Source of the DNA: a virus | IMG/VR virus record: IMGVR_UViG_3300024289_000019 | Span: 1-64,000 of that record | Reading direction: 5' to 3' (one strand) | DNA length: 64,000 nt | Part shown: positions 1-63,725 of the stretch, piece by piece | How positions within the stretch are numbered: the stretch's first letter is position 1 | Layout of the letters: every line of letters starts with the position of its first letter | Position numbers and translations under genes: made by a program | The notes under the pieces: generated by a model | Databases searched by the model: none | Seen by the model: the letters and a program-made list of their open reading frames with translations, nothing else | What the model was told of the DNA's origin: nothing

Positions 1-24
1 AACTGGAGTTTGGGAGTCTCTTGA

Positions 25-576
25 ATGATATATTTTTTATATGATGTTGAAGATAGGAGCCCTTATATTAATGAGGTTGGAGAATATTCTAGTTGTTTAA
101 TTGGAGCTATTGATGAGGCTAACCTGCTATATATAAGATTACCAAAAGTTCTTATTGTTCCTAAAAACGTAGCCATGGCATGGAAATTTGCTGGAAAGTA
201 TAAAGGCTATATAAATGTTAGAGAAAAAACAAGAGTATATGATCAGATTGATCATGAATATTTGAATCCATATAAAGATAAATATCAATATTCTTTGACC
301 GAAGAAGACAAAGAAAATGCTTGTTTATTTCAAAAAGCATTTATGTGTTTCACATTAAACAAATATTATAAAAATAAAATTCGTATTTCTAACTCAACAC
401 CCGCATTTTTACGAGATGAAAATTGGTCTTCAGAACACGTACTTTTAGAAAAGAAAAAAATAGTAGAGTCTGAGATAAATGCTTGCCAAAATTGGATAGA
501 AACTGGTATACTATTAGATAAGAAATTTGGAGTTCAATATGACCCAAATATTGCATCACAAACTATCAATCTTTAA
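25..576 (+). CDS. hypothetical protein, first complete gene of the U32/methyltransferase operon
   Basis: 183-aa ORF; the ATGA at 25-28 overlaps the stop of a probable upstream gene; ends 5 nt before the next gene. Confidence 0.7.
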   Translation: MIYFLYDVEDRSPYINEVGEYSSCLIGAIDEANLLYIRLPKVLIVPKNVAMAWKFAGKYKGYINVREKTRVYDQIDHEYLNPYKDKYQYSLTEEDKENACLFQKAFMCFTLNKYYKNKIRISNSTPAFLRDENWSSEHVLLEKKKIVESEINACQNWIETGILLDKKFGVQYDPNIASQTINL

Positions 577-581
577 GGAAA

Positions 582-2225
582 ATGTTTAGCGTACCTTTAA
601 ATCCAAAATTAAATGAAAATCAACTTAATGATTTTATAAATTTTTTAAAAGATTATAAACCATATATTTATGATTTTTATTTTACATGTAGGATCCCGCC
701 ATTTAATCAAGATGCTATGGGGGATGTTTTTTCTGCTGGGCCAGAAGACCATCAATACCTTATTGATTTAGCATTATATATTCAATCTGAGTTAGGAATT
801 ACTGCTTCTGCAGTTTTTAACAATATCGAGGTCAGGCCAAGTCAAGAAAACCTAGATTTGTTTATTGAAAATTTTAAACCACTATATGAATCTGGTATTA
901 GATCTGCAACAATACCACATACTCATTGGATGGCTACAGGACAAATTAAAAAACAGTTCCCAGAACTTTTTGTAAAAAATACAATATTGAGAAATGTTTC
1001 AGAACCAAGAGACATAGAAAAGCTTGCTAAGGCTGGATTTGATTATATAAATTTAGATCGTGACTTAATGAGGGATCACGAACGTTTAAAAAGGTTTAAT
1101 AAGGCAAAGCAACAGTTTGGCATAAAACTGTCTCTATTGGCCAATGAAGGCTGTTATGGCGGTTGTATAATGATGGACGAGCATTATCAATTTAATAACA
1201 CTAGAACAGATGGACCACAATATTTTAATGACCCAATAAGTAGGGTATCTTGCCCAAAATGGGATCACGAAGATTTTGCACATTCTCTTAAAACAGCCAA
1301 TTTTCCTCCATGGAGAAAGGATTGGCAAGAGTTTTTAGATGATCTTGGAATTGATGTAATTAAAATGCATGGTAGAGAATCTCATACAAGATTAAAAGAA
1401 ACTATGGATATAATTAGAAGGTATGCCAACAATGAAGAAATTTTATTTGATAATTTTAATGATTTTATTGAAGAAACTAATTTGGTTGATAAACCAATTG
1501 CCATCTGGCGCAATAAGATCAAAAATTGTAAATTTGATTGCTGGGATTGTGGGTATTGCGACAAAATAGTTGCAGCTAAATATGGCACTCATATCAATGA
1601 GAAAGTTGCTTTGGTTGCTAAAGAAATTGTTGATTCAGTAAATAATTTAATTGAAATAGATATCCCAGGATTAACTAGTACTCGTGTTCAATCTTTAATT
1701 AATGCAATTGCAAATAAAAGTAAAAAATATTTAGAGGTTGGATCTTATCAGGGTGCAACCGCAGCGGCTGCTTTAAAAGGTAATAGCATAGAAGCGTATT
1801 TTGTAGATAATTGGTCAAATGTTCCACAATCTTTACGAACAGATTGGGACACTCCTAAAAGTAATTCATTGGAAGAATTTAAAGATAATATAAGGCCATA
1901 TATTGGAAATAATAAAATTAAAATATGCAATTCTGATATGTTTAAGGTAAATTTAACAGACATTAAAGATATTGATTTTTTCTTTTATGATGGCCCACAC
2001 GACTTGCAGAATACGCAAAATATAGTAAAATATTACTCAGAGGTTTTTGCAAAAAACACCATTATGATATTTGATGACGCAAATTGGACTCAAGTAGTTC
2101 AAGGCTCTCATAAAGGAATTATTGAGTCTGGTTTAAAAATATTATATAGCAAAAAAATATTAAATAGTTCAGAATCAGATAAAGACTGGTGGAACGGTTT
2201 ATACATATTAGTTACGGAGAAATAA
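582..2225 (+). CDS. peptidase U32-family (Fe-S hydroxylase-like) domain fused to a class I SAM methyltransferase (Methyltransf_24-like)
   Basis: LDRDLMRD, LLANEGCYGGC, SC, KMHGRE and CKFDCWDCGYC motifs (U32-like); C-terminal YLEVGSYQG, VDNW, FYDGPH, IFDD (SAM MTase). Confidence 0.75.
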   Translation: MFSVPLNPKLNENQLNDFINFLKDYKPYIYDFYFTCRIPPFNQDAMGDVFSAGPEDHQYLIDLALYIQSELGITASAVFNNIEVRPSQENLDLFIENFKPLYESGIRSATIPHTHWMATGQIKKQFPELFVKNTILRNVSEPRDIEKLAKAGFDYINLDRDLMRDHERLKRFNKAKQQFGIKLSLLANEGCYGGCIMMDEHYQFNNTRTDGPQYFNDPISRVSCPKWDHEDFAHSLKTANFPPWRKDWQEFLDDLGIDVIKMHGRESHTRLKETMDIIRRYANNEEILFDNFNDFIEETNLVDKPIAIWRNKIKNCKFDCWDCGYCDKIVAAKYGTHINEKVALVAKEIVDSVNNLIEIDIPGLTSTRVQSLINAIANKSKKYLEVGSYQGATAAAALKGNSIEAYFVDNWSNVPQSLRTDWDTPKSNSLEEFKDNIRPYIGNNKIKICNSDMFKVNLTDIKDIDFFFYDGPHDLQNTQNIVKYYSEVFAKNTIMIFDDANWTQVVQGSHKGIIESGLKILYSKKILNSSESDKDWWNGLYILVTEK

Positions 2226-3136
2226 TGCCTAGTTTAAATATTTTGTTTGAAGAGTGGTACTACATATTAATGCTTGGAACTGTAATGGTTCTTTCTTATT
2301 ATGCAAGAAAATTTGATGTCTTTCAACCACTTTATTCTTGGATTGCAAAAAAAATAAAATCAAAAAGAGCAGTAATTGCTATTACATCAGCCGTTTCTGG
2401 AGTGTTGCCAATTAATGGCAGAGTTGTTATTTCAGCTGGAATCTTAAATACAATGGCTCCACAAGATGAGCGTAGAAAAAAATATGGCGTCATAGACTAC
2501 TTGGCAACACATCACTTTTATTTTTGGTCTCCATTAGAAAAGACTGTATTGCTTCCGATGGCGGCATTAAATATTTCTTATGCTTCTTTTATAGGATCGG
2601 TATGGCCGCTGCTTGCAACTTTAGTAGTTTGTATTCTTTATTATATTTTTGGGGTTTTAAAAGAGTCTGATGTAGATATTGTTATTAGGAGTAAGAGAGA
2701 AAAACAATTATTAAACACAAAAAATATAATCAAGGATAATATATTTACATTATTTATAGTCACAGCCATCCTTGCTTTGGGCAACTTTGTGTCATACCAC
2801 AAAGACTATTTTTCAAAAATTGTAGATTCGGCTCACGATTCAGAGATGCTAGTATTAGTCTTACTTGGATCCTTTATCCTATCTTTTATCCTAGGAAGTA
2901 GTGGAAAATTTGCTGGAGTTCTAGCCGTATCCCTACCAATTTTTGGAGCCACCTACCTACCCATACTGTTTGCAGCAAATTGGGCTGGCTACATATTGTC
3001 TCCAATGCATAAATGCATGATAATTGGAAAGAGGATGTTTGGGTCTTCCTTTAAAGAATACTATAGGGTCCTATCAGCAGTAGTCCTATTTGTCTTTTTG
3101 GTATCGATAGTTCAGACTTATACCACAGGGCTTTAA
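2225..3136 (+). CDS. multi-pass membrane protein, DUF401-like putative transporter
   Basis: many hydrophobic helices; GVLPING, HHFYFWSPLE and GYILSPMHKC motifs; start chosen at the TAATG overlap with the previous stop. Confidence 0.6.
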   Translation: MPSLNILFEEWYYILMLGTVMVLSYYARKFDVFQPLYSWIAKKIKSKRAVIAITSAVSGVLPINGRVVISAGILNTMAPQDERRKKYGVIDYLATHHFYFWSPLEKTVLLPMAALNISYASFIGSVWPLLATLVVCILYYIFGVLKESDVDIVIRSKREKQLLNTKNIIKDNIFTLFIVTAILALGNFVSYHKDYFSKIVDSAHDSEMLVLVLLGSFILSFILGSSGKFAGVLAVSLPIFGATYLPILFAANWAGYILSPMHKCMIIGKRMFGSSFKEYYRVLSAVVLFVFLVSIVQTYTTGL

Positions 3137-3918: not shown

Positions 3919-4887
3919 ATGGCTGTAGCAAATTCAACTACACAAATTATAATGCCAGGACTAGATGCGTCTATTCAGTCAAATCTAAATACAGCATTAA
4001 ATACAAACACAACGTTGCAGAATGTTTTAGCATCAGTTGGAAATATTCCACTGAAAGTTGTTAAGCCTGTTACAGTCAAATTAACTTCAACACAGTATTG
4101 GACTCGTCCAGCTAATACACTGTCTTCAGTAGAGGTTACAATTGTTGGCGGCGGCGGAGGCGGCGGGGGATCTCATGGTTCTCACCATGGTGGCGGCGGT
4201 GGTGGTGGAGGACAGGTTATTCGTCGTCACGTAGATATTGCATCTGTTGCAGTAGGACAATCTGTTCTTGTTACAATTGGAACTGGTGGTTCAAGAGTTT
4301 GTGGAAGCACAAATACAAATGGCGGTAGCGGTGGTAATACTACATTTGGTTCATTCTTAACTGCATTTGGCGGCGGCGGAGGCGGCGCTTATGGACAGCA
4401 TGCACCACAATCTCCTGGAGGTTCAACTGGTGGCGGCGGTGGAAGAAACGCACACTCTGCAGGAGGCGGTGGCGGTGGCGCAGGTGGCGCAGGCGGAGGA
4501 GCTTGGGGACAAAATCAAGAACATAGCTGGAGAATGTATGCTGGACACGGTTCACATACACCAACAACAGATGAAGGATCTTCTTCTGGAGGACATGGAA
4601 TGGCTGGACAAAATTCAAGTTCACAGTCTACAACAGGTGGAACTGGCGGATTAGGTTTGTATGGCCTTGGCGGTGGCGGTGGCGGTTCAGGTCGTCACGC
4701 AATGGGCAACGGATCAAACGGTGGTGGCGCAGGTGGCGCAGGAAATGGAAGTCCGTATGGAACTGCTGGACAGCCTGGACAAAATGGTTCTGGCGGTGGC
4801 GGTGGCGGTGCAGATAATGGAGACTGCTCAGGACTTGGTGGAGACGGAGCATGTATTATTACTTATTGGTTAAAGGAGAATGCATAA
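3919..4887 (+). CDS. glycine-rich (polyglycine) fibre/adhesin-like protein A
   Basis: WTRP..VEVTIVGGGGGGG...GDGACIITYW architecture typical of phage Gly-rich domains. Confidence 0.7.
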   Translation: MAVANSTTQIIMPGLDASIQSNLNTALNTNTTLQNVLASVGNIPLKVVKPVTVKLTSTQYWTRPANTLSSVEVTIVGGGGGGGGSHGSHHGGGGGGGGQVIRRHVDIASVAVGQSVLVTIGTGGSRVCGSTNTNGGSGGNTTFGSFLTAFGGGGGGAYGQHAPQSPGGSTGGGGGRNAHSAGGGGGGAGGAGGGAWGQNQEHSWRMYAGHGSHTPTTDEGSSSGGHGMAGQNSSSQSTTGGTGGLGLYGLGGGGGGSGRHAMGNGSNGGGAGGAGNGSPYGTAGQPGQNGSGGGGGGADNGDCSGLGGDGACIITYWLKENA

Positions 4888-5249
4888 TGAGTGAACGCAG
4901 AAATATGGCGTTAGTAAAAGAAGGCACAGTTATAAATACTATTGTTTTTCCAGAAAAAGGAGAACTTTATGACAGCCTTTTGGTAGATGTAAAAGCACAA
5001 TTTTCAGACTGCGACTTAATTGATGCAACTGATTGGGTAGATGAATCACATCCATATGATGTTGTTTCTCCAGGATTTTCATGGGATGGAGAAAAATTTA
5101 TCGCTCCAGCTCCAGGAGTAGATACAGTAACAGAAGAAAGCTTAGAAGAAGCAAAATTAATGATGGAAGCAGATATCGCACGTAGGGCAGAAGAGGCAGC
5201 TAATGATCCTGCTGTAACTCCTGCACCAAAAACAGGAGGAAATGAATAA
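4887..5249 (+). CDS. tail fibre-associated chaperone-like protein
   Basis: ALVKEGTVINTIV...PGFSWDGEKFIAP motif common in genes following Gly-rich fibre genes; TAATG coupling. Confidence 0.55.
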   Translation: MSERRNMALVKEGTVINTIVFPEKGELYDSLLVDVKAQFSDCDLIDATDWVDESHPYDVVSPGFSWDGEKFIAPAPGVDTVTEESLEEAKLMMEADIARRAEEAANDPAVTPAPKTGGNE

Positions 5250-5686
5250 TGCCGATTACATCAATTCCAGAAGCAGTTAGCCCTGCACTTTGGACATACA
5301 CATACTTACAGGCACCAATAAATGGACAAGGTTATACATATTTTAACATTCCTGTTGAATTTATTAATCTTGGAACAATTGCTGCTGGAGGAACTGCAAC
5401 ATGCAATATTGCCGAAGATGGAGTTTTTAGAATGCAAGCAAGCGGTAACATGACAGTAGCATTCACAAACATTCCTACTACAGGTAAAGCAGCATTTTGG
5501 CAGGTAGAAATTAAAGCTGGTGGCTCTTACACAGTTACTTGGCCAGCAGCAGTTAAATGGGATGGCGGTGGAGCTTCTAACGTAGCACCATTGCTTTCAA
5601 CCAATACAACAGTATTGAATTTTTTCACAAGAGACGGCGGTACCACAATTTATGGTGCGTACGCTTTTGCCGATCTTAACGTATAG
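5249..5686 (+). CDS. virion fibre-associated protein
   Basis: VTWPAAVKWDGG..P.L....VLNFFTRDGGTTIYG motif seen in phage fibre domains. Confidence 0.6.
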   Translation: MPITSIPEAVSPALWTYTYLQAPINGQGYTYFNIPVEFINLGTIAAGGTATCNIAEDGVFRMQASGNMTVAFTNIPTTGKAAFWQVEIKAGGSYTVTWPAAVKWDGGGASNVAPLLSTNTTVLNFFTRDGGTTIYGAYAFADLNV

Positions 5687-5699
5687 GAGATAAATAAAA

Positions 5700-6680
5700 A
5701 TGGCTGTAAATTCCACCACAAAGTTACAAGTACTACCAGGACTAGATAGCACAATGCAATCAAATATGCAGATTGCTTTAAACTCAAATTCAACTTTAGC
5801 ATCTGTAATTTCTGCTACTGGTGGAGTTCAAACAAAGCTTTTAAAGCCAGTAACGGTTAAATTTAATTCAACTGGTAACTGGACACGTCCAGCAAACACA
5901 ATGTCTTCAGTAGAAGTAATTTTGGTCGGTGGCGGCGGAGGCGGCGGAGGTTGCCATTCATCTGGTCACGCTGGCGGTGGCGGTGGTGGTGGACAAGTTA
6001 TTAGAAGATTCGTAGATATTTCTTCGGTAGCAGTTGGTTCAAATATTCTTGTTACAATTGGTAACGGTGGTTCAAGAGTTTCTGGTAACAATAATACAAA
6101 TGGTGGAGACGGAGGACAATCAACCTTTGGTTCATTCTTGACTGCAGGCGGAGGCGGCGGAGGCGGCGCTTATGGACAGACTGGAAGACAAGGTAGCGGT
6201 GGATCTTCTGGCGGTGGCGGTGGCCAAGCTTCACACTCTGCTGGTGGCGGTGGCGGTGGCGCAGGTGGCGGAGGATTGCATGGTCGTTGCATGATGATGC
6301 ACCACTCTTGGTACACTTATGGTGGGCAGGGCTCACATAACGTTTCTGGACTTAATGGAGGAGAAGGAGCTTCTATGGGAGGTTCTGGAGAGTATAAGGC
6401 CTCGTCATCAGATCAGAATTGTTGCGGTGGAAATGGCGGACCTGGACTATATGGATTTGGCGGCGGCGGCGGAGGCGGCGGAGATTGGGGTATGGGAGCA
6501 GGTTCAAATGGCGGTGGAAATGGTGGCTCAAGAACTTCGTATAGCCCATATGGAACTGCTGGAGCATCTGGTATAGATGGAACTGGCGGCGGCGGCGGAG
6601 GTTGCCAAGAAGGAAACAGTTCTGGCTTAGGTGGCGCAGGGACCTGTTTAATTACTTACTACGTAAAAGAGAGCGCTTAA
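5700..6680 (+). CDS. glycine-rich (polyglycine) fibre/adhesin-like protein B, paralog of 3919-4887
   Basis: colinear similarity to protein A (KPVTVK..S...WTRPANT.SSVEV). Confidence 0.7.
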   Translation: MAVNSTTKLQVLPGLDSTMQSNMQIALNSNSTLASVISATGGVQTKLLKPVTVKFNSTGNWTRPANTMSSVEVILVGGGGGGGGCHSSGHAGGGGGGGQVIRRFVDISSVAVGSNILVTIGNGGSRVSGNNNTNGGDGGQSTFGSFLTAGGGGGGGAYGQTGRQGSGGSSGGGGGQASHSAGGGGGGAGGGGLHGRCMMMHHSWYTYGGQGSHNVSGLNGGEGASMGGSGEYKASSSDQNCCGGNGGPGLYGFGGGGGGGGDWGMGAGSNGGGNGGSRTSYSPYGTAGASGIDGTGGGGGGCQEGNSSGLGGAGTCLITYYVKESA

Positions 6681-6681
6681 T

Positions 6682-7086
6682 ATGTACGCCGTAATTGAAG
6701 ACAATAAGATTGTCGCATACGGCACAGCAGAGCAAATTCTAAATGTGTCTGTTGGCGAACAAGGTTTAAAATCTGTAATTAAAGAAAATAATCTTATTGA
6801 AGTTGTAACAAAAATAGATTATGACTCTGACACAGAAAAATTAATTTCAGTAGAACCTTATATTGAAGGCAAAAAAGTATATTCTGTTAAAAAAGAAAAG
6901 CTTAGTAAAGAAGAAATTAAGTCTAACATAGATGCACACGTAGATTTTGAACTAATGTCTGTTTCTGGAAGAACTGATAAAGCGGCAAAAGATTACATTA
7001 AAGCTTTGGAAAAAATTAAAGATTCGGCAGATTTGATTTCAAAAATTGAATGGCCAGAAAAACCAGCAGAGGAATCATCTAAATAA
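6682..7086 (+). CDS. fibre assembly chaperone-like protein
   Basis: MYAVIEDNKIV start and YIKAL..I......IEWPEKP C-terminus, reminiscent of tail fibre assembly proteins. Confidence 0.5.
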   Translation: MYAVIEDNKIVAYGTAEQILNVSVGEQGLKSVIKENNLIEVVTKIDYDSDTEKLISVEPYIEGKKVYSVKKEKLSKEEIKSNIDAHVDFELMSVSGRTDKAAKDYIKALEKIKDSADLISKIEWPEKPAEESSK

Positions 7087-57730: not shown

Positions 57731-57804
57731 GTGGCAGTAGCTTAGTTGGTTAGAGCCCCGAACTCATAATTCGGTAGTCGTAGGTTCGAGTCCTACCTGC
57801 CGCA
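57731..57804 (+). tRNA. tRNA with CAT anticodon (elongator Met or Ile2)
   Basis: acceptor GTGGCAG/CTGCCGC, anticodon arm CCGAA-CTCATAA-TTCGG, GTTCGAG T-loop; no encoded CCA. Confidence 0.9.
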
Positions 57805-57817
57805 CAAGGAGAAAGAA

Positions 57818-58493: not shown

Positions 58494-58566
58494 GCCCTTG
58501 TAGCTCAGTGGATAGAGCGAGACTCTTCTAAGGTCTGCGTCGGAGGTTCGATTCCTTTCAGGGGCG
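58494..58566 (+). tRNA. tRNA-Arg (TCT)
   Basis: acceptor GCCCTTG/CAGGGGC, anticodon arm AGACT-CTTCTAA-GGTCT, GTTCGAT T-loop. Confidence 0.9.
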
Positions 58567-58585
58567 CTTTTTGGTATAATAGCTT

Positions 58586-63636: not shown

Positions 63637-63709
63637 TGATCCATAGCTCAGTCGGCAGAGCGGGAAGCTGTTAACTTCTAGGTCCCTGGTTCGAGTCCAG
63701 GTGGATCAG
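63637..63709 (+). tRNA. tRNA-Asn (GTT)
   Basis: acceptor TGATCCA/TGGATCA, anticodon arm GGAAG-CTGTTAA-CTTCT, GTTCGAG T-loop. Confidence 0.9.
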
Positions 63710-63725
63710 CGAGAGAAAGAAAAAA

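Follow-up and report, generated by a model that had tools for sequence, protein, structure and literature searches.

The beginning of IMG/VR virus record IMGVR_UViG_3300024289_000019, of which we analyzed the first 64,000 nucleotides (hereafter the window), encodes a two-domain protein, open reading frame (ORF) 2, that joins what fold models and alignments identify as a distant member of the U32 superfamily to a predicted class I methyltransferase dependent on S-adenosylmethionine (SAM). We give about an even chance to the view that ORF2 is a U32-like two-domain enzyme that would hydroxylate and then O-methylate its substrate within a cassette of five predicted genes. The cassette as such is a real and widespread enzyme system without a published study, and our survey of the literature on DUF401, on cyanophage locus tags, and on phage U32 proteins found no publication describing the enzyme or the cassette. 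An original prediction made from the letters of this DNA had described 3 tightly spaced or overlapping plus-strand genes with a U32-like iron-sulfur (Fe-S) hydroxylase fused to a methyltransferase in the middle. These genes are indeed present, with a gap of 5 nt between ORF1 and ORF2 and a TAATG overlap between ORF2 and ORF3, and so are all sequence motifs that had been quoted from ORF2 and ORF3, except that the SPMHKC motif with which ORF3 was said to end lies at residues 271-276 of 315 and not at the end of the protein.

Since the Pfam U32 model gives no hit, the label "U32-like" for the N-terminal domain of ORF2 rests on fold and on profile-profile evidence. An AlphaFold2 model of residues 1-340 (predicted local distance difference test score [pLDDT] 92.5, predicted template modeling score [pTM] 0.91) shows a beta/alpha barrel followed by helices. 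Compared to 48,161 representative chains, the top solved match of this barrel was the U32 protein Mk0906 (5d88_A; Z 16.9, root-mean-square deviation 3.1 Å, 222/247 residues), followed by methylenetetrahydrofolate reductase at Z 13.3 and by other generic barrels with lower scores. Foldseek ranked 5D88 third by E-value, yet with the best target-normalized TM-score (0.69). The expectation that this domain would model as a triosephosphate isomerase (TIM) barrel was therefore borne out, with a U32 protein as its best solved match. Sequence searches of the PDB returned nothing significant for ORF2, for its methyltransferase domain, or for 4 alignment profiles (A1, A4, A5, and A6).

An exhaustive search with residues 1-340 among 1.84 billion proteins delineated a small and mainly viral family of 310 clusters at 50% identity; in total, more than 1,891 homologs of ORF2 were found. 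PHROGs places ORF2 in phrog_1458 and, when the N-terminal two thirds are taken by themselves, in phrog_36869; neither family has an assigned function. Among near-complete clusters, 72 are stand-alone proteins of around 340 aa and 7 are fused to a methyltransferase. We read conservation from 36 diverse homologs that are 27-49% identical to the window protein and found C191, C195, C224, C316, C320, C323, and C326 to be invariant, so that the conservation of the cysteines, on which the original prediction had laid weight, is clear; E189, H201, K261, G264, and R265 are kept in at least 90% of these sequences. Some U32-like relatives (P0131, P0250, and P0150) carry N- or C-terminal extensions of 160-230 aa that match no Pfam family and no cassette profile. 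Because Pfam found nothing in the extensions of these and similar proteins, they offer no Rosetta-stone fusion.

When the 36-homolog alignment was compared by hhalign to 16 genuine PF01136 proteins taken from Spirochaetota genomes, the match was moderate and confined to the barrel core (86.9% probability, E 4.2e-6, 114 columns). A permissive alignment placed C191 and C195 on U32 cysteines 1 and 2 (CX6C) with a deletion of 3 residues, C224 on U32 cysteine 4, and K261/G264/R265 on the "K-I-E-G-R" motif. In UbiU and UbiV, the U32 motif CX6CX15CX3/4C binds a [4Fe-4S] cluster (PMC6747719), and the corresponding residues of ORF2 would be expected to bind a cluster as well. Nothing that is conserved in the 16 U32 proteins corresponds to the additional CX3CX2CX2C motif, which is also present in ORF139 of phage RP12 and might supply a cluster ligand.

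The C-terminal part of ORF2 was predicted to be a methyltransferase, and this holds both by sequence and by modeled structure. Pfam Methyltransf_24 matches residues 384-499 with 34.8 bits (cut-off 26.3), and residues 345-547 model as a class I methyltransferase with a Rossmann fold (pLDDT 93.7), although no sequence-level relative of this segment was found among solved PDB chains. The 5 nearest structures are all small O-methyltransferases (5x7f at Z 16.8, then 6g7d, 8c9v, 3tr6, and 4oa5; range Z 15.9-16.8), and TrmR of Bacillus subtilis (5zw3) ranks 12th with Z 15.3. Across 68 distinct fused proteins, G387, G391, D470, D498, D499, and N501 are conserved to 95-98%. G387/G391 and the D...DD.N pattern would fit a SAM motif I and a putative Asp/Asp/Asn metal site as in the O-methyltransferase class. 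Some source annotations call homologs "O-methyltransferase YrrM". The model thus describes a class I methyltransferase that appears closest to cation-dependent O-methyltransferases, with TrmR and COMT-like enzymes among its neighbors, and this would fit a predicted chemistry of hydroxylation followed by methylation.

The characterized U32 proteins UbiU/UbiV, TrhP, and RlhA are of the [4Fe-4S] type and are needed for O2-independent hydroxylation, in which prephenate donates the oxygen (PMC10990095). The rings that become hydroxylated are aromatic or heteroaromatic. Two pairs in which O-methylation comes after hydroxylation are known, UbiU/V with UbiG and TrhP with TrmR (PMC6747719, PMC10990095, PMC6599085, PMC6158493). 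For a U32-like barrel joined to an O-methyltransferase-type domain, the same sequence of 2 steps would be the simplest interpretation. The barrel with its putative Fe-S cluster would hydroxylate a ring carbon of the substrate, the fused methyltransferase would cap the new hydroxyl to give a methoxy group, and the enzyme would act within a five-gene cassette that travels with tail fiber and virion genes. Hydroxylation by the barrel may be the core activity of the system, since Ralstonia jumbo phages, a Leptospirales contig (see below for both), and most clusters of the family lack the methyltransferase. The DUF401-like protein encoded by ORF3 would then be an optional helper that perhaps supplies the substrate or serves as a membrane tether. 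Fold, conserved residues, domain architecture, and gene linkage are what the analysis establishes, whereas cluster binding, both reactions, their order, and the target are inferred.

Several points weigh against this interpretation. On the side of the barrel, the canonical CX6CX15CX3/4C pattern is not kept but appears as CX3C-X28-C, in which the third U32 cysteine has no counterpart, and the Pfam U32 model (PF01136, cut-off 22.4 bits) gives no match in ORF2 at E<=0.1 and matches just 1 of the 36 relatives, at E 0.033. A PF01136 search found nothing, either in the phage genome or in the homolog-bearing Leptospirales genome. The U32 assignment made in the original prediction thus stood with regard to fold (5D88 on top) and profile comparison, whereas it fell short of a Pfam U32 match and of the canonical cysteine pattern, and what the model and the alignments describe is a distant U32-superfamily member outside the Pfam family with a remodeled cysteine pattern. 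On the side of the methyltransferase, the domain reaches Z 15-17 with many methyltransferases, including Z 15.6 with tRNA m1A58 methyltransferases (around 1.2 Z below the top), and O-methyltransferases lead the others by around 1-1.5 Z, so that the preference of the model for them is slight. Besides, the 2 domains may act on different atoms, given that most family clusters lack the methyltransferase (72 versus 7), and even canonical U32 proteins have not displayed hydroxylase activity directly in vitro, nor has any of them been reconstituted as a hydroxylase (PMC10990095).

These points partly converge on an alternative in which the barrel is not a hydroxylase but performs other Fe-S redox chemistry or acts as a peptidase or collagenase on glycine-rich fibers, with the methyltransferase acting on another site or substrate. 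The U32 family was originally named for peptidase/collagenase activity, and glycine-rich fiber-like proteins are encoded just downstream in this phage. Such a role would agree with the position of the domain outside Pfam U32, its remodeled cysteine pattern and extra CX3CX2CX2C motif, and the lack of a methyltransferase in most relatives. We nevertheless consider it improbable: what the domain has in common with U32 proteins is precisely the residues of the Fe-S cluster and of the KIEGR motif, the glycine-rich proteins are not conserved neighbors (13/65 loci), and the fusion to an O-methyltransferase-type domain, which recurs in abundant lineages, finds its simplest explanation in consecutive steps.

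The reading of ORF2 as a two-step enzyme gains from its gene neighborhood, which extends beyond the operon of 3 genes that had initially been proposed. The 112,301-bp source record is rated complete by CheckV, has its record type given as "linear", and contains genes for portal, head protease, terminase, and DnaB-type helicase. Its last 186 nt (112116-112301) are 98.9% identical to window positions 1-186 (2 mismatches), which suggests a circular, circularly permuted, or terminally redundant genome. Given these overlapping ends, homologs of the cyanophage gene clusters T4-GC351 and T4-GC353, which the original prediction had missed, lie directly upstream of ORF1. A GC353 profile matches the last gene of the record (111466-112104), and the gene before it is the T4-GC351 homolog. 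As read from the sequence, the cassette therefore comprises 5 genes instead of 3, in the order GC351-like, GC353-like, GC352-like (ORF1), ORF2, and DUF401-like (ORF3). Promoter and terminator scans remained at chance level.

ORF1 itself has no match in Pfam, in PHROGs, or in a tblastn search of phages. However, a clean ORF1 profile finds proteins of around 240 aa on related contigs (E 1e-28 to 1e-32), and in overlapping regions these are also found by a clean T4-GC352 profile made only from cyanophage and Leptospirales sequences (E 1e-27 to 1e-36). Because these bridging proteins match both profiles, we view ORF1 as a shortened member of cyanophage T4-GC352, even though the direct hhalign comparison of ORF1 and GC352 is weak (15% probability). 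A relationship of ORF1 to the GC353 family was considered and rejected because hhalign shows none. Cyanophage T4-GC353 is located directly upstream of the fusion gene and has homologs in RP12 (ORF140) and in Leptospirales (a 245-aa ORF). GC351-like proteins match nothing in Pfam, the GC353-like protein had no usable match in the Atlas search, and when ORF1, the GC353-like protein, and the U32-like domain were submitted to complex prediction, the score was 0.00, which is evidence neither way.

The same set of genes recurs across phage genomes. In a survey of 50,697 phage isolate records, the fusion gene (T4-GC354) was found in 126, namely 77 of Synechococcus phages, 38 listed as "Cyanophage", 8 of Prochlorococcus phages, and 3 of Ralstonia phages, always annotated as "hypothetical". 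GC353 was likewise found in 126 records with an identical breakdown of organisms, GC352 in 123, GC351 in 142, and the DUF401-like gene in 12, each of them (12/12) from a phage in which the U32-like gene is present as well. Since just 12 of the 126 isolate records with the enzyme contain it, the DUF401-like gene is accessory. In the S-CAM4 / ACG-2014j records (H42-H47), the DUF401-like gene is located around 58 kb away from the fusion gene; because of this distance, the linkage in these phages is at the level of the genome only.

Among metagenomic viruses, at least 517 IMG/VR stretches encode DUF401-like relatives, of which we examined the closest 80 (not mutually independent) and counted linkage in the 64 loci whose upstream sequence extends over at least 3.5 kb. 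A U32-like gene lies upstream on the same strand in 62 of these 64 viral loci and is fused to the methyltransferase in 59. The DUF401-like gene starts within 150 nt of the U32-like gene in 48 loci, and GC353 is present in 60. The sole exceptions are 2 IMG/VR contigs (L090 and L091) that have a DUF401-like gene without a U32-like gene in 4-6 kb of upstream sequence.

Independent evidence for the pairing of U32-like and DUF401-like genes comes from the Ralstonia jumbo phages and from the Leptospirales contig. In Ralstonia jumbo phages RP12 and RP31, a stand-alone U32-like ORF (40% identity, cysteine motifs kept) overlaps the DUF401-like gene. On a 6.4-Mb contig of a Leptospirales metagenome-assembled genome (L007:1847-11179), GC353, GC352, U32-like, and DUF401-like genes follow each other without a methyltransferase and in the same order as the last 4 genes of the cassette described here. 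This block adjoins a gene for a 1,523-aa DUF6519/LamG (Laminin_G_3) protein upstream and a patatin-like gene downstream, and it was the one cellular locus that a profile search of genome contigs brought up. We rejected a prophage origin of this copy because its flanks are ordinary cellular genes. The anticipated co-occurrence of these genes was thus seen across unrelated phage lineages and on one bacterial chromosome.

ORF3 as listed runs from a GTG at 2189 to 3136 (315 aa), but the ATG at 2225, which overlaps the TAA stop of ORF2 and is preceded by GGAG at 2216-2219, is the likelier start because homologs begin at the corresponding residue. The DUF401-like nature that had been proposed for its product is supported by Pfam DUF401 (PF04165; 40.9 bits in 2 stretches, cut-off 24, E 2.1e-10) besides a weak CitMHS match, and the RP12 and Leptospirales homologs also match Pfam DUF401. 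By contrast, the TIGR00529 model (AF0261 family) scores 40.4 bits, far below its cut-off of 378.4. Motifs GVLPxxGRV, THHxYxWSPLEK, GSSxKxAG, and SPxHKC are invariant, and PHROGs assigns the protein to phrog_14035, a family without an assigned function. We therefore describe ORF3 as a DUF401/ion-transporter-type multi-pass membrane protein and predicted transporter, for which the originally proposed import of a cofactor or metal would be one candidate role; no functionally characterized DUF401 member was found in the literature. Around canonical DUF401 genes at 25 Spirochaetota loci, no U32 or U32-like neighbor was found within 1.5 kb and the neighbors are heterogeneous, which argues that pairing with a U32-like gene is specific to the viral DUF401 subfamily.

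The presence of a membrane protein beside the enzyme raises the possibility of small-molecule chemistry at the membrane, in which, as with UbiU/V and UbiG, a lipid-soluble aromatic such as a quinone or an envelope component would be hydroxylated and O-methylated while the DUF401-like protein delivers this substrate or anchors the enzyme at the membrane. Apart from RNA, the sole known U32 substrates are polyprenyl phenols bound to the membrane, and the hydroxyls newly added to them become O-methylated (PMC6747719). UbiG is among the Foldseek matches, the DUF401-like gene either overlaps the enzyme gene or comes right after it in 3 unrelated contexts, and a patatin-like lipase gene comes after the pair in Leptospirales. 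Yet most enzyme-bearing isolate phages lack the membrane protein, neither an SCP2 domain nor another lipid-binding partner was found, GC351-353 as the universal partners show no membrane or lipid signature, and the context is one of fiber genes, so we hold this explanation to be unlikely.

This context is directly apparent in the phage studied here, where tail fiber, fiber assembly, and virion protein genes precede the cassette and Gly_rich_2 fiber-like proteins follow it (Table 1). The 2 Gly_rich_2 paralogs are rich in Gly, His, and Cys, and each is followed by a small ORF (4851-5686 and 6682-7086, respectively) in what looks like a local duplication of a fiber-like unit. The virion proteins encoded downstream had been named as possible substrates, but of 65 related loci just 13 have Gly-rich homologs in this position, which makes these proteins unlikely to be an obligate substrate. 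For phage RP31, a gel-band survey of virions by mass spectrometry detected the cassette-flanking ORF133 and ORF140, which are virion proteins without an assigned function, but not ORF135-137 (DUF401-like, U32-like, and GC353-like; PMC5468394 Table S3). This absence is weak evidence, yet it fits non-structural enzymes that are encoded among virion genes.

Our best guess is that the target would be a protein or a ligand connected with the fibers. A more specific version, to which we give a low probability, is a new kind of virion maturation pathway in which a fiber or receptor-binding protein or its ligand would receive a methoxy-aromatic modification from an O2-independent, prephenate-dependent Fe-S hydroxylase fused to an O-methyltransferase, while GC351-353 provide the substrate, a scaffold, or a chaperone.

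Modification of RNA would be the obvious precedent from known U32 proteins. ORF2 would then combine TrhP and TrmR in one polypeptide and make 5-hydroxy- and then 5-methoxy-pyrimidines in transfer RNA (tRNA) or ribosomal RNA (rRNA) of host or phage, thereby tuning translation in the course of infection. Two of the 3 characterized U32 systems act on RNA (RlhA on 23S rRNA, TrhP on tRNA; PMC5727448, PMC6599085), and TrmR, which converts 5-hydroxyuridine (ho5U) to 5-methoxyuridine (mo5U) (PMC6158493), is a structural neighbor of the methyltransferase domain; some homologs also bear the YrrM annotation. However, TrmR is only the 12th match and level with many unrelated methyltransferases, a Pfam scan found no RNA-binding domain in ORF2, and the gene is always accompanied by GC351/352/353 (and by the membrane protein where present) among fiber and virion genes, not genes of nucleic acid metabolism. 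The tRNA genes of the window encode Met-CAT, Arg-TCT, and Asn-GTT (57731-57805, 58494-58567, and 63637-63710). To our knowledge, none of these belongs to the set of tRNAs that bear 5-oxyuridine (xo5U). Taken together, we see little chance that RNA is the substrate.

Table 1. Features of the cassette and its downstream neighbors (window coordinates unless stated otherwise).
Feature	Position	Strand	Basis or remark
3' end of GC353-family gene	1..28	+	TGA stop at 26-28 overlaps ORF1 ATG; sequence read directly
Body of GC353-family gene	record positions 111415-112143 (end of record)	+	GC353 profile match, E 6.6e-28
ORF1, 183 aa, probable shortened T4-GC352 member	25..576	+	ORF list
ORF2, 547 aa, predicted U32-like barrel and O-methyltransferase-like domain (T4-GC354, phrog_1458)	582..2225	+
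U32-like domain, aa 1-340	582..1601	+	TIM barrel and helical C-terminal Cys-rich segment (model)
E189-G-C191-x3-C195	1146..1166	+	aligns with first two U32 cluster cysteines
C224 (in "SCPKW")	1251..1253	+	aligns with fourth U32 cluster cysteine ("C-R-W")
K261-M-H-G-R-E	1362..1379	+	aligns with U32 "K-I-E-G-R" motif
C316-x3-C320-x2-C323-x2-C326	1527..1559	+	extra four-cysteine motif, invariant in 36 sequences
Predicted class I SAM methyltransferase domain, aa 345-547	1614..2225	+	Pfam Methyltransf_24, structure model
ORF3, DUF401-like multi-pass membrane protein (predicted)	2225..3136	+	Pfam DUF401; alternative GTG start at 2189
Gly_rich_2 fiber-like protein	3919..4887	+	Pfam PF21722; downstream neighbor
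Second, paralogous Gly-rich fiber-like protein	5700..6680	+	downstream neighbor

No enzyme class other than the U32 superfamily is known to draw on an organic oxygen donor (prephenate) for hydroxylation without O2, and substrates have been assigned to just 3 of its roughly 12 subfamilies. The proteins described here would add a divergent branch that is invisible to Pfam and spans 126 isolate phage records, mostly of marine cyanomyoviruses, as well as thousands of metagenomic proteins. That an O2-independent type of Fe-S enzyme should be kept in phages of oxygen-producing cyanobacteria is unexpected, and its fixed association with 3 functionally unassigned proteins beside fiber genes points to an unrecognized step of virion biogenesis or host takeover. 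Knowledge of its substrate would broaden U32 chemistry and give a function to 4 or 5 conserved cyanophage gene clusters (T4-GC351-354). If the idea of a role in virion maturation were true, the U32 superfamily would gain its first substrate among proteins or virions, and abundant aquatic phages would be found to use a new post-translational modification that affects host recognition.

Compared to known systems, each part of the cassette combines familiar features with its own peculiarities. ORF3 shares the Pfam match, a weak CitMHS match, and multi-pass topology with DUF401 proteins (PF04165, TIGR00529), but it is shorter than canonical members, far below the TIGR00529 cut-off, and paired with a U32-like gene. 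The methyltransferase domain has the modeled Rossmann fold and an E-x-G-x-x-x-G motif I in common with O-methyltransferases of the COMT/CCoAOMT type (Methyltransf_24, Methyltransf_3), and its D...DD.N pattern is at positions where the metal ligands of this class would lie; it differs from them in having no sequence-level match to any solved chain. With the U32 family (UbiU/UbiV, TrhP/YegQ, RlhA/YdcP; Mk0906, PDB 5D88), the barrel of ORF2 shares the modeled TIM fold, the K-x-x-G-R motif, and cysteines after the same strand, whereas its position outside the Pfam model, altered cysteine spacing, extra CX3CX2CX2C motif, fusion to a methyltransferase in many phages, and linkage to GC351-353 and DUF401-like genes set it apart. 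Its closest functional parallels would be TrhP with TrmR (B. subtilis yrrMNO) and UbiU/V with UbiG, in which a U32-type enzyme is likewise paired with a class I O-methyltransferase; while these are separate proteins that act on tRNA U34 or polyprenyl phenols, respectively, ORF2 unites both predicted activities in one polypeptide that is encoded in a context of fiber genes.

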